DNA of 64,000 nt from Escherichia phage vB-Eco-KMB23: the sequence record OR525702.1. One strand, 5' to 3'. Made by a program: the position numbers and the translations under genes. Under the pieces are notes generated by a model. That model did no database searches, had not been told where the DNA came from, and saw only the letters and a program-made list of their open reading frames with translations. Shown here piece after piece: positions 41,117 to 64,000 of the stretch (position 1 is its first letter; the number at the start of each line of letters is the position of its first letter).

Positions 41117-41117
<1 letters not shown>

Positions 41118-41842
41118 TATAGTACCTTTAGTGTATTTTTAATTTTAGAAAAAAGTTCTTCAAGAGAACCATCGTTTGTAATTACTAAATCACCATCACG
41201 AATTGGCAATCCAGCTTCTGTAATATGTGTATCATTGGATTTTTGACCAGGACGAACTACATGAATTACTGTAGCACCCATCGCCCTAGCCGCATCCATT
41301 TCATGATCTTGACGAGTATCAGGAACGATATAATAATCATAACCTGAGTTAAATTTATCAAGATAATCTAAAGCAAATAATTTTACCCAATACATGCGGT
41401 CGAAGTTATTAACAATCAAATCCGTACCTAGGGCTTGCATCAGACGACGGACTGACCATTGATCTTCAATATTATTTATAACGTCAGCAATCTTATTAAA
41501 TGCTACGAAAGTAACTGATTCTTTTCCTTCGTCATCAAAAACAAACACACCTTTAATTGGGCTTTTACTATTAAGATAGCAAAATGCTTGTTCCATAATC
41601 GTGATTACTTCTAATTTAGTCAGATTTAAATTAGTCTCACGATCATAGTCAATTCCTTCAAACTCTTTACGAGTTAAGCAAGGATAGTCAGTGTTTGCTG
41701 CAAATACTCCCCATGCATAAGCCAATGCATCCTTAATAGGACCAGCAAGTTGGTATTTAACTGCAGAATAATTATTCATGATAAAATCTGCAGTAGTATC
41801 TTTTCCGCTACGCTTTACACCACTTAAAAAGATTAGTTTCAT
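41117..41842 (-). CDS. 1: Deoxynucleoside monophosphate kinase
   Basis: 241 aa; P-loop MKLIFLSGVKRSGKDTTADFI. Confidence 0.9.
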
Positions 41843-41891
41843 ATGTTTCTCCTCAAATTTAGTTAAGATTATAACACATGAAACTGAAGCA

Positions 41892-42422
41892 TTAAACTTC
41901 TGCTATAATTTTTCCATCTTTTTCTACTTGAAAATAGGTGTAAGGAATCGTTGCAGTACATACTAAAGCCGGGTCTGAATCTTCCGTATAGCTAAATTCT
42001 ACTTCAGATAGGTCAGAAACCCAAGGCTTATAAAAATTTATTGACATCACGATTTCAGTTTTGCTATTATCTAAGATGTAAAGCGTAATGTACTCAGGAC
42101 CTGTTTTTTGGGCAGTATTTTCACCTGTAAGATAGTTGCTAGTTCCTAGCATCCATTCATACATTCCTATCCACGACTTAAGTTCTTCATCAACTATAAA
42201 TCTCACAATGAGTGGATCATACTCGAATGTAACACCTGGACGTTGTGCTCGGCCCAGTCCAAACGGCCCAGTCACGGTATCAGTAACAGGTATTCTAATT
42301 CCTGGAATAGGAACTGACTGAGCATTTAAAGTAAAAGCAGATGTAGTATTACTATGTGGTATTGATACTACAAAGTTAGTTGTATTTGCTTGGTTAAAAA
42401 TTTGTTGTAGAGCTTGCGACAT
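41892..42422 (-). CDS. 3: Tail completion and sheath stabiliser protein gp3
   Basis: 176 aa from MSQALQQIFNQ as in T4; the ORF-track 202-aa version adds 26 codons that run into a tandem repeat. Confidence 0.8.
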   Translation of the reverse strand: MSQALQQIFNQANTTNFVVSIPHSNTTSAFTLNAQSVPIPGIRIPVTDTVTGPFGLGRAQRPGVTFEYDPLIVRFIVDEELKSWIGMYEWMLGTSNYLTGENTAQKTGPEYITLYILDNSKTEIVMSINFYKPWVSDLSEVEFSYTEDSDPALVCTATIPYTYFQVEKDGKIIAEV

Positions 42423-42474
42423 ATATTCCTCATAATGCTTTATAACTGTTGGTGGTATAATGGGTCTAAGTCCC

Positions 42475-42511
42475 TTCCATTCAATTCCATTCAATTCCAT
42501 TCAATTCCATT
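42475..42511. repeat. Tandem repeat, 10-bp unit TTCCATTCAA x3 plus partial copy
   Basis: ttccattcaattccattcaattccattcaattccatt read directly; lies in the gene 2 / gene 3 intergenic region. Confidence 0.9.
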
Positions 42512-42548
42512 TAGAACAAACAACAGAAAAGAATGGAAGATAATAGAA

Positions 42549-43373
42549 TTAGATATTTGACCAGACTTTGTTTGCAGAGAAACGTTTTCCTTTTGAAACG
42601 AACTGCTGAAGTGGCATCAACACAACGTTCGCCCAGTCTTTCGGGGCGATTTCAACAAGGCTACCCATAATATTACCAGGTATATATGCCTTAATCATTT
42701 GGTCTGCACCCCTAAATCCTTTCACTTGACTCCAATCAATTTTTAATTTCGTTTTATTAGTAATAGTAGGTGTATTTGAATATTGCTTTAAAAGCTCTTC
42801 TAGAAATTGCTGACGAGCTTTAGGTGGAATATAGTGCAAGTTTAATCCGTACATTAAATTATGCTTACCTAAACCAAGGTAAATTATCAAAGGAAATTTA
42901 TCCCAGTAAGGAAGAGTTTCCTTGTGTTTAGCATCATAAGCAAAAGCATATATTCGTCCCGGCTGCGGGCGAACAACTTTATGTCCTTTTACTTGCTTAA
43001 TAGTTTCAGCAAACCACTTTCTGGTTTTATTATTAATTGCTGCACCTTCATTACGAATTTTATCACGCAATGTTTGTCTGAATGAATTTATCATAAGCAG
43101 TTGTCTTTCTTGCTTATTGAGTTTATTCATTGGTTTTGATTCAAGCTTTTGAATCTTTTCAGCCGTTTTAATTCCTGAAGCATATTTTGACATTGCTGAA
43201 GTAAACGTAGAGTATTTGATTCCTCTTTCTTCAGCAAATTGCTTTCCTGTCATTCCTTTTGCTTTGGCCTTTTTATATTCAAGACCTATCTGAATCCATT
43301 TCTTTTCGTTTAATGATTGCTTAACCTTTGGAACTTGGGGAGTGCTTTCATTAATTATTTGAAAAATAGCCAT
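42549..43373 (-). CDS. 2: DNA end protector protein gp2
   Basis: 274 aa as T4 gp2; basic protein; stop overlaps gene 4 start region. Confidence 0.85.
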
Positions 43374-43825
43374 TATGCCCCCTTAAAGCCAAGAGCTCGT
43401 AATCCATCTTCTGTTAGAATTCTAAATTTTATTCCACGCTTTTCAGCTAAAGCTTGCGCTGCTTTCCATTTGTCGGTATTAACGGAATATGTATAAATTT
43501 CATTCATAAATCTTTTCTTCGCTGCAGTTGTTAGATGTGCTGGTTTAACTGGTGGTTGTGTTTCTTTTTTAGGTTTTATTTCAATAAAAAATTCTTGTCC
43601 AGAAGAATCTTTCATCCAAATATCCATGAAGTATCTACGTTTTTTCCCTTCTGCATTACAAAAATAAGGAATTACTGCTGTTTCACTACCCCATGCAATA
43701 ATTTCTGGATTTTTATCTAACCATTCAAAAAAGAATTTTTCCCAATTTGATCTATACGTAATTTTTTTAGGGTCACCTCTATACTTTGATATATTTTTAG
43801 GAACCCATTTTCCAGAATATGCCAT
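43373..43825 (-). CDS. 4: Head completion protein gp4
   Basis: 150 aa as T4 gp4; divergent from gene 53 across a late-promoter region. Confidence 0.85.
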
Positions 43826-43846
43826 TGGATTCTCCTTATAAATAGA

Positions 43847-43854
43847 TAATATAT
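43847..43854 (+). promoter_or_regulatory. Late promoter (TATAAATA) for gene 53
   Basis: Exact TATAAATA about 20 nt upstream of gene 53 ATG, in the divergent 4/53 intergenic region. Confidence 0.6.
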
Positions 43855-43872
43855 TTATAAACAGGAGGGCCC

Positions 43873-44463
43873 ATGCTCTTTACATTTTTTGATCCGATTG
43901 AATATGCGGCCAAAACGGTGAATAAAAACGCGCCGACTATTCCTATGACAGATATTTTTAGAAACTATAAAGACTATTTTAAACGCGCTCTTGCGGGATA
44001 CCGCTTACGTACTTATTATATCAAAGGTTCACCACGCCCGGAAGAATTAGCAAATACTATATATGGAAATCCACAGTTGTATTGGGTTTTATTGATGTGT
44101 AATGATAATTATGACCCGTATTATGGATGGATTACTTCACAAGAAGCTGCTTATCAAGCATCTATACAAAAATACAAAAATGTGGGTGGAGACCAGATAG
44201 TATATCATGTGAATGAGAACGGTGAAAAATTTTATAATTTAATATCATACGATGATAATCCATATGTTTGGTATGACAAAGGTGATAAAGCTAGAAAATA
44301 TCCTCAATATGAAGGAGCACTTGCTGCGGTCGATACGTATGAAGCTGCTGTTCTTGAAAATGAAAAACTTCGTCAAATAAAAATAATAGCAAAATCCGAC
44401 ATTAATTCATTTATGAACGACCTTATACGTATAATGGAGAAATCTTATGGAAATGATAAGTAA
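43873..44463 (+). CDS. 53: Baseplate wedge protein gp53
   Basis: 196 aa as T4 gp53; TATAAATA late promoter upstream. Confidence 0.9.
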   Translation: MLFTFFDPIEYAAKTVNKNAPTIPMTDIFRNYKDYFKRALAGYRLRTYYIKGSPRPEELANTIYGNPQLYWVLLMCNDNYDPYYGWITSQEAAYQASIQKYKNVGGDQIVYHVNENGEKFYNLISYDDNPYVWYDKGDKARKYPQYEGALAAVDTYEAAVLENEKLRQIKIIAKSDINSFMNDLIRIMEKSYGNDK

Positions 44464-46174
44464 TAACCTTAATTGGTTTGTTGGTGTTGTTGAAGATAGA
44501 ATGGACCCATTAAAATTAGGTCGTGTTCGTGTTCGTGTGGTTGGTTTGCATCCACCCCAAAGAGCACAAGGTGATGTAATGGGTATTCCAACTGAAAAAT
44601 TACCATGGATGTCAGTTATTCAACCTATAACTTCTGCAGCGATGTCAGGAATTGGAGGTTCTGTTACAGGGCCAGTAGAAGGAACTAGAGTTTATGGTCA
44701 TTTTTTAGACAAATGGAAAACTAACGGAATTGTCCTTGGCACATATGGTGGAATAGTTCGCGAAAAACCGAATAGACTTGAAGGATTTTCTGACCCAACT
44801 GGGCAGTATCCTAGACGTTTAGGAAATGATACGAACGTATTAAACCAAGGCGGAGAAGTAGGATATGATTCGTCTTCTAACATTATCCAAGATAGTAACT
44901 TAGACACCGCAATAAATCCCGATGATAGACCACTATCAGAGATTCCAACCGATGATAATCCAAATATGTCAATGGCTGAAATGCTTCGCCGTGATGAAGG
45001 ATTAAGACTAAAAGTTTATTGGGATACAGAAGGATATCCGACAATTGGTATTGGTCATCTTATCATGAAGCAGCCAGTTCGTGATATGACCCAAATTAAT
45101 AAAGTTTTATCAAAACAAGTTGGTCGTGAAATTACCGGAAATCCAGGTTCTATTACAATGGAAGAAGCGGTAACTTTATTTGAACGCGATTTGGCTGATA
45201 TGCAACGTGACATTAAATCACATTCTAAAGTAGGACCAGTCTGGCAAGCTGTAAACCGTTCTCGTCAAATGGCATTAGAAAATATGGCATTTCAGATGGG
45301 CGTTGGCGGTGTAGCTAAATTTAACACAATGTTAACTGCTATGTTAGCCGGAGATTGGGAAAAGGCATATAAAGCTGGTCGTGATTCATTGTGGTATCAA
45401 CAAACAAAAGGCCGTGCATCCCGTGTTACCATGATTATTCTTACAGGGAATTTGGAATCATATGGTGTTGAAGTGAAAACCCCAGCTAGGTCTCTATCAG
45501 CAATGGCTGCTACTGTAGCTAAATCTTCTGACCCTGCTGATCCTCCTATTCCAAATGACTCGAGAATTTTATTCAAAGAACCAGTTTCTTCATATAAAGG
45601 TGAATATCCTTATGTGCATACAATGGAAACTGAAAGTGGACATATTCAGGAATTTGATGATACCCCTGGGCAAGAACGATACAGATTAGTTCATCCAACT
45701 GGAACTTATGAAGAAGTATCACCGTCAGGAAGAAGAACAAGAAAAACTGTTGATAATTTGTATGATATAACCAACGCTGATGGTAATTTTTTGGTAGCCG
45801 GTGATAAAAAGACTAACGTCGGTGGTTCAGAAATTTATTACAACATGGATAATCGTCTTCACCAAATAGATGGAAGCAATACAATATTTGTACGTGGCGA
45901 TGAAACTAAGACGGTTGAAGGTAATGGAACTATCCTAGTCAAAGGTAATGTTACTATTGTAGTTGAAGGCAATGCTGACATTACAGTTAAAGGAGATGCT
46001 ACCACTTTAGTTGAAGGTAATCAAACTAATACAGTAAATGGAAATCTTTCTTGGAAAGTTGCTGGGACAGTTGATTGGGACGTTGGCGGTGATTGGACAG
46101 AAAAAATGGCATCTATGAGTTCTATTTCATCTGGTCAATACACAATTGATGGATCGAGGATTGACATTGGCTAA
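44447..46174 (+). CDS. 5: Baseplate hub / tail-associated lysozyme gp5
   Basis: 575 aa; internal lysozyme domain MAEMLRRDEGLRLKVYWDTEGYPTIGIGHL; C-terminal beta-helix VEGN repeats. Confidence 0.95.
   Translation: MEMISNNLNWFVGVVEDRMDPLKLGRVRVRVVGLHPPQRAQGDVMGIPTEKLPWMSVIQPITSAAMSGIGGSVTGPVEGTRVYGHFLDKWKTNGIVLGTYGGIVREKPNRLEGFSDPTGQYPRRLGNDTNVLNQGGEVGYDSSSNIIQDSNLDTAINPDDRPLSEIPTDDNPNMSMAEMLRRDEGLRLKVYWDTEGYPTIGIGHLIMKQPVRDMTQINKVLSKQVGREITGNPGSITMEEAVTLFERDLADMQRDIKSHSKVGPVWQAVNRSRQMALENMAFQMGVGGVAKFNTMLTAMLAGDWEKAYKAGRDSLWYQQTKGRASRVTMIILTGNLESYGVEVKTPARSLSAMAATVAKSSDPADPPIPNDSRILFKEPVSSYKGEYPYVHTMETESGHIQEFDDTPGQERYRLVHPTGTYEEVSPSGRRTRKTVDNLYDITNADGNFLVAGDKKTNVGGSEIYYNMDNRLHQIDGSNTIFVRGDETKTVEGNGTILVKGNVTIVVEGNADITVKGDATTLVEGNQTNTVNGNLSWKVAGTVDWDVGGDWTEKMASMSSISSGQYTIDGSRIDIG

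Positions 46175-61292: not shown

Positions 61293-64000
<2,708 letters not shown>

Follow-up and report, generated by a model that had tools for sequence, protein, structure and literature searches.

A rare two-unit expansion of a 10-bp tandem repeat in the hairpin-forming spacer between genes 2 and 3 of a T4-type phage

We find that the tandem repeat between genes 2 and 3 of Escherichia phage vB-Eco-KMB23 is probably a rare, derived allele of a non-coding spacer. It is best explained by slippage that expanded one arm of an RNA hairpin and was tolerated, with the start of gene 3 kept at position 42422. All positions refer to the window, that is, the whole 64,000-nucleotide (64 kb) stretch of DNA that was analysed.

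A perfect 10-bp repeat in the gene 2 / gene 3 spacer

The window phage belongs to Tequatrovirus, the T4 genus. Its nearest INPHARED records are about 97% identical to the window over 24 kb, which indicates a distinct phage and not T4 itself. The repeat and the genes around it are as follows.

41117-41842, minus strand: gene 1
41892-42422, minus strand: gene 3 (gp3, tail tube terminator / tail completion protein, 176 aa), with its SD GAGG at 42431-42428
42475-42511, minus strand: the tandem repeat, which exceeds that of T4 by 20 bp (2 units) and makes up the 3' arm of a sense-RNA hairpin
42549-43373, minus strand: gene 2 (gp2, DNA end protector, 274 aa), whose stop codon directly abuts the hairpin
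43373-43825, minus strand: gene 4
plus strand: genes 53 and 5

The plus strand at 42475-42511 reads three copies of TTCCATTCAA followed by TTCCATT (3.7 copies in total), and the coding (minus) strand correspondingly reads AATGGAA followed by three copies of TTGAATGGAA. TRF reports a period of 10, 3.7 copies and 100% matches, with a score of 74 that is the highest among perfect short-period arrays in the 64 kb window. A repeat search likewise returned three in-register 17-nt copies at 100% identity. The 10-mer TTCCATTCAA occurs four times in the window against 0.55 expected, a count that none of 100 shuffles reached. Sequence, TRF and shuffles thus bear out the original prediction of a perfect 10-bp tandem with three copies and a partial fourth. 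The coordinates agree with it in placing the repeat in the intergenic region, here the 126-bp spacer separating gene 2 from gene 3. Its wording "immediately upstream of gene 3" is right as to the side and slightly loose as to the distance, since the repeat ends 52 nt from the downstream gp3 ATG and 44 nt from its SD.

Two further repeat observations concern other parts of the window. A lone additional copy of TTCCATTCAA at 63253-63262 on the minus strand is probably due to chance. An imperfect 24/48-nt periodic repeat (TRF scores 81 and 120) lies on the plus strand at 45914-46045, near the 3' end of gene 5, and is probably equivalent to the "iterons" of oriE, direct repeats at even spacing described in PMC3016281.

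Relatives carry 1.7 copies, and one other phage carries 3.7

A 401-nt query spanning the spacer matched 503 phage records in INPHARED. The full-coverage matches (n=478) span 380-383 nt, compared with 401 in the window, and the best identity is 95.0% (381/401). T4 and about 480 sequenced Tequatrovirus records have 1.7 units (coding strand: AATGGAA-TTG-AATGGAA), which leaves the window exactly 20 bp longer. Indeed, in an alignment with T4 (NC_000866), T2, FJ1, fPS-2 and an IMG/VR contig the flanks match, and the sole difference is a clean 20-nt gap within the repeat. Among ten further contigs with the identical 176-aa gp3, every one carries the short form, in two sequence variants, and the two records with odd spacer lengths, PYps55T and PST, differ outside the repeat. 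A gp3-based locus search of IMG/VR returned only three close relatives, each with 1.7 copies or uninformative. Searches with two different patterns gave no match to alleles of at least 2.7 units in IMG/VR, JGI metagenomes or GTDB genomes, and INPHARED contained none. Alleles of 2.7 or 4.7 units were found in none of the collections searched, and 1.7 and 3.7 are the only states seen.

The exact 202-aa open reading frame (ORF) that the 3.7-copy form creates by extending gp3 is on record in two contigs, whereas the 176-aa gp3 has 2623 index blocks. The two sequences, GCA_050537045.1 and the Logan assembly of SRR33660935, match at 100% identity and represent a single phage, assembled twice independently from one sample. 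Both assemblies contain 3.7 copies. Against the window, this second carrier shows 55 mismatches in 3.6 kb and an identity of 96.5-97.5% over 11.6 kb. The same count in two phages about 3% apart, together with the agreement of two assemblers, indicates that the allele is real, heritable and rare, and is not hypervariable. The comparison of copy number across relatives that had been proposed as a check therefore sets the window apart, with the 1.7-copy state essentially fixed and the 3.7-copy state confined to the window and this one other phage. Each carrier has nearer relatives than the other, and a SNP 67 bp from the repeat distinguishes them; this fits recurrence as well as a single origin followed by spread through recombination.

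The expansion creates an upstream ATG in the gp3 frame

The longer repeat brings one additional feature into the gp3 reading frame.

42423-42500, minus strand: 26-codon in-frame ORF extension of gp3, with its ATG at 42500 and an in-frame TGA preceding it

As originally predicted, the repeat supplies on the minus strand an ATG (42500) that opens this extension. Its translation is MELNGIEWKGLRPIIPPTVIKHYEEY, continuing into MSQ... of gp3, and the peptides belonging to it are MELNGIEWKGLRPIIPPTVIK and MELNGIEWK/GLRPIIPPTVIK. The in-frame ATG arises only at copy numbers of at least 2.7, and the extension is the same for every such count. The upstream frame is not itself peculiar to the 3.7-copy allele, since in 1.7-copy phages, T4 included, 58 codons ahead of gp3 are open in its frame, reaching across the spacer into gene 2. 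Several public records annotate a 203-aa gp3 with a TTG start (MFVLNGIEWK...).

The further suggestion that an extended gp3 is made did not hold up. The 26-codon extension is unlikely to be translated and looks like a by-product of ORF calling, because its SD is weak, its start lies within the hairpin, relatives lack it and the known protein is shorter. The predicted anti-SD duplex is -3.3 kcal/mol for the upstream ATG at 42500 and -6.3 kcal/mol for the gp3 ATG at 42422, and the probability of being unpaired is 0.20 and 0.45, respectively. The extension with its ATG is missing from 1.7-copy relatives that encode the identical 176-aa gp3, and the gp3 chains in three solved T4 structures (9mkb, 9mof and 9x3p) are 176 aa. 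The repeat expansion thus probably leaves the gp3 protein unchanged.

Two points on database entries for gp3 also deserve mention. Fragments of T4-type gp3 are deposited as "phage tail protein, partial [Enterococcus faecalis]", probably through assembly contamination, and a 90% protein cluster mixes gp3 with an unrelated 219-aa HNH endonuclease.

A conserved hairpin follows gene 2

The spacer is more conserved across Tevenvirinae genera than expected. In the sense RNA the repeat forms one side of a predicted hairpin, whose other parts are listed here with the nearest late promoter.

42512-42521, minus strand: loop of the T4-type fold, GUUUGUUCUA, 10 nt, partly paired with the first repeat copy in the 3.7-copy allele
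42522-42548, minus strand: 5' arm of the hairpin, adjoining the gene 2 stop, with the degenerate 10-nt array UUCUAUUauc UUCCAUUcuu UUCUGUU
43852-43859, minus strand: nearest canonical late promoter, TATAAATA, upstream of genes 4-2-3

The hairpin predicted for the T4 spacer RNA has 17 bp with interruptions and reaches -19.1 kcal/mol (z -5.4); that of the window spacer RNA reaches -25.0 kcal/mol (z -4.8). None of 200 shuffles was as good in either case. In the predicted window fold all four AAUGGAA copies pair in register with left-arm units. Modelled with 1.7, 2.7, 3.7 and 4.7 copies, the fold reaches -19.1, -22.6, -25.0 and -28.0 kcal/mol, respectively. Mosigvirus (z -4.8), Gelderlandvirus (z -8.4) and Karamvirus (z -4.5) likewise have a predicted hairpin at this position, and for each of them 0/200 shuffles fold as well. 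Across these four Tevenvirinae genera the CUUCC/GGAAG core is common and the inner stems are unlike; compared by eye, they are CAUUC/GAAUG in T4, CGGA/UCCG in Karamvirus and UGGUU/AACCG in Gelderlandvirus. A crude MAFFT/RNAalifold analysis found 4 of 16 pairs changed on both sides, a figure that comes from only six sequences, two of them misaligned by MAFFT. The sense RNA folds better than the antisense RNA (-19.1 versus -11.9 kcal/mol in T4, -25.0 versus -12.3 kcal/mol in the window), because several pairs are G·U in the sense orientation only.

Elsewhere in the subfamily and beyond, the arrangement varies. The predicted hairpin of Dhakavirus and Gaprivervirus is placed differently and encloses a TATAAT element. 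Serratia phage Muldoon and Acinetobacter phage Lazarus have G+C-rich stem-loops after gene 2, that of Muldoon being annotated as a terminator. We further note that in T4 the last AAUGG of the repeat may alternatively pair with a CCAUU overlapping the -10 element of the opposite-strand motif described below. In fPS-2, vB_EcoM_112-like phages and Dhakavirus dhabil, an HNH-type homing endonuclease gene (219 aa) sits between gene 2 and the hairpin. These relatives keep the hairpin spacer downstream of the insert, and the window lacks the gene.

A scan of 42400-42600 detected no intrinsic terminator. The hairpin is followed by GGGACUUAGACCC and has no U run, so it is not a canonical intrinsic (rho-independent) terminator. 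Rfam in E-value mode gave only chance-level matches on 42300-42700 and no fitting family, and a sigma-70 promoter and terminator scan of 41800-43900, which did not include a MotA-box model, reported nothing at the repeat. Between gene 4 and gene 3 there is no canonical late promoter TATAAATA; the sites found all lie in the divergent region of genes 4 and 53. Late gene 3 mRNA would thus read through the hairpin and the repeat as a 4-2-3 co-transcript. As a late promoter for gene 3 we considered TATAAAGC, the nearest near-match, and rejected it, as it has two mismatches and is not conserved. The divergent region itself holds overlapping back-to-back late promoters, with TATAAATA on both strands within 43837-43859 (plus-strand copy at 43837-43844).

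Since the co-transcript contains the hairpin, its most likely role would be that of an intercistronic mRNA element, either a 3'-end or processing barrier or an attenuator. Intercistronic mRNA hairpins such as the E. coli REP elements protect the upstream cistron. The hairpin described here resembles them as a stable stem-loop directly 3' of a cistron within a polycistronic message, without a U-tract. It differs in its unrelated sequence without an Rfam match and in the 10-nt internal periodicity of its arms, and its role here is deduced.

A middle-promoter motif on the opposite strand

On the plus strand, a candidate promoter lies next to the repeat.

42434-42461, plus strand: putative MotA-dependent middle promoter, with MotA box AATGCTTTA at 42434-42442, a 13-bp spacer and -10 element TATAAT at 42456-42461

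This motif fits the MotA box, spacing and -10 element of the T4 MotA/AsiA-dependent middle promoters, whose consensus is a MotA box (a/t)(a/t)TGCTT(t/c)A, 12+/-1 bp and a -10 element TAnnnT (PMC2988021). The strict motif WWTGCTTYA-N11-13-TATAAT has two matches in 128 kb (both strands of the window) against 0.04 expected. The second match, shortly before gene 1, coincides with the mapped position of T4 promoter P1. Six genera (Tequatro-, Mosig-, Gelderland-, Karam-, Dhaka- and Gaprivervirus) keep NNNGCTTNN (GCTT) and an invariant TATAAT, 12-13 bp apart, at this site. They also share a conserved downstream block, and the flanks diverge. The motif was not found at this place in phages of Acinetobacter (Lazarus), Proteus (Bragavirus) and Serratia (Muldoon). 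Transcription from the candidate promoter is predicted to start near 42468, which would put the repeat at about +7 to +44 of the transcript.

The candidate differs from the T4 middle promoters in being antisense to late genes, in having no obvious downstream gene for 1.4 kb, and in its absence from the table of 58 mapped T4 middle promoters (PMC2988021). Consensus-like middle-promoter sites can also be inactive in vivo (PMC2988021), and the MotA box overlaps the SD region of gene 3. For these reasons we treat the motif as a candidate only. The literature searched contained nothing relevant on a T4 antisense or "anti-late" transcript or on a mapped start at this place. A 45-aa ORF on the plus strand (42533-42670, ATG at 42533) was considered as the target of the promoter and set aside, as the ATG is absent at that position in Mosigvirus. 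A review of T4 replication describes oriF and oriG as a MotA promoter combined with an A+T-rich unwinding element. Near oriE, which lies a few kb from the candidate, the review knows of no middle-mode promoters.

We tentatively raise the possibility that the spacer is an undescribed functional module. It would combine an antisense MotA promoter (six genera) with an abutting hairpin (four genera, with 10-nt periodic arms in T4), and the repeat expansion would be a natural variant of its 5' leader. Its transcript could act as an antisense regulator of early read-through or of the late 4-2-3 message; an R-loop-forming element like oriF and oriG would be a less likely function.

Origin of the expansion and alternative explanations

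The features of the allele fit slippage or unequal recombination: a 7-bp direct repeat at 10-bp spacing, an exact insert of two units in perfect head-to-tail copies, and unchanged flanks. In the ancestral state, two AATGGAA heptamers 10 bp apart in all phages of the T4 genus would provide a substrate for misalignment. Slipped-strand mispairing during replication (or unequal recombination) between them would then lengthen the array of 1.7 copies to 3.7 through the gain of two perfect 10-bp units. The added units would sit in the 3' arm of the sense-RNA hairpin and lengthen its stem; since the 5' arm is itself a degenerate 10-nt array, they would find in-register partners. Such lengthening is compatible with a tolerated allele in which gp3 initiation stays at the conserved ATG at 42422. 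Both the slippage mechanism and the near-neutrality of the expansion are inferred.

The likeness to Streisinger-type slippage, classically described in T4, lies in the perfect whole-unit insertion, the short direct repeat already present in relatives and the unchanged flanks. Here, however, the event affects a hairpin arm in a non-coding spacer and not a coding frameshift hotspot, and it comprises two steps, the intermediate being unobserved. Stepwise slippage predicts a 2.7-copy allele no rarer than the 3.7-copy one, and its absence from the collections searched counts against that course. An origin templated by the left arm (a quasi-palindrome correction) was rejected, because the new units are perfect copies of the neighbouring TTGAATGGAA and not complements of the degenerate left-arm units.

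A contingency (phase-variable) locus, at which frequent slippage would toggle an N-terminally extended gp3 or tune gp3 expression, is suggested by a perfect repeat with units of a length not divisible by 3, by an in-frame ATG that depends on copy number and by a count unlike that of relatives. The repeat resembles bacterial contingency loci in being a perfect tandem of such units near a gene start. It differs from them in lacking hypervariability among relatives, with two states only across hundreds of genomes and several large collections and the same count in both 3.7-copy phages despite their divergence of about 3%. It also lies neither within a translated ORF nor between -35 and -10 elements, being 52 nt upstream of the gp3 ATG and downstream of the putative plus-strand -10 element. 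A weak SD and a position inside the hairpin disfavour use of the upstream ATG, and because the extension is identical at all counts of at least 2.7, further slippage would not switch the form of gp3. We consider this explanation very improbable. The original proposal that slippage could vary the copy number accordingly stands for the whole-unit difference from relatives and fails for ongoing variability. Less probable still is a sequencing or assembly artefact. Assemblers can miscount short tandem repeats and the allele occurs in no INPHARED record, but a different phage, 55 mismatches away over 3.6 kb, has the same 3.7 copies, the submitter and Logan assemblies of its sample agree on the count, and a 37-bp array is far below the length of a sequencing read.

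The expansion might instead matter through the other strand. With the MotA promoter at 42434-42461 (plus strand) starting about 6 nt before the repeat, extra units would alter the leader of a transcript antisense to genes 2 and 4, or a module like oriF and oriG. The rarity of the strict motif, with P1 as its only other match, the retention of GCTT and TATAAT in six genera amid diverging flanks, and the build of oriF and oriG together with the nearby oriE argue for this reading. It is nonetheless unlikely, though less so than a contingency locus, given that consensus-like sites can be silent and that conservation of the MotA box could partly reflect the overlapping SD region. The hairpin of the antisense RNA is also far weaker, the extra units adding only 0.4 kcal/mol, and the first plus-strand ORF (45 aa) does not keep its ATG in Mosigvirus. 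A slippage expansion that was tolerated in a non-coding hairpin arm remains the explanation we prefer.

Significance

Taken alone, the repeat is an ordinary, apparently tolerated slippage polymorphism that is rare and stable. In its 3.7-copy form it makes gene callers output a spurious 202-aa gp3, and annotators should keep the 176-aa start. The repeat itself is of low interest; experiments would be better spent on the conserved hairpin and the antisense promoter motif beside it. Should the promoter prove active, one of the best-studied phage genomes would gain an antisense middle transcript or an origin-like element, and the 3.7-copy phages would be natural variants for testing it.
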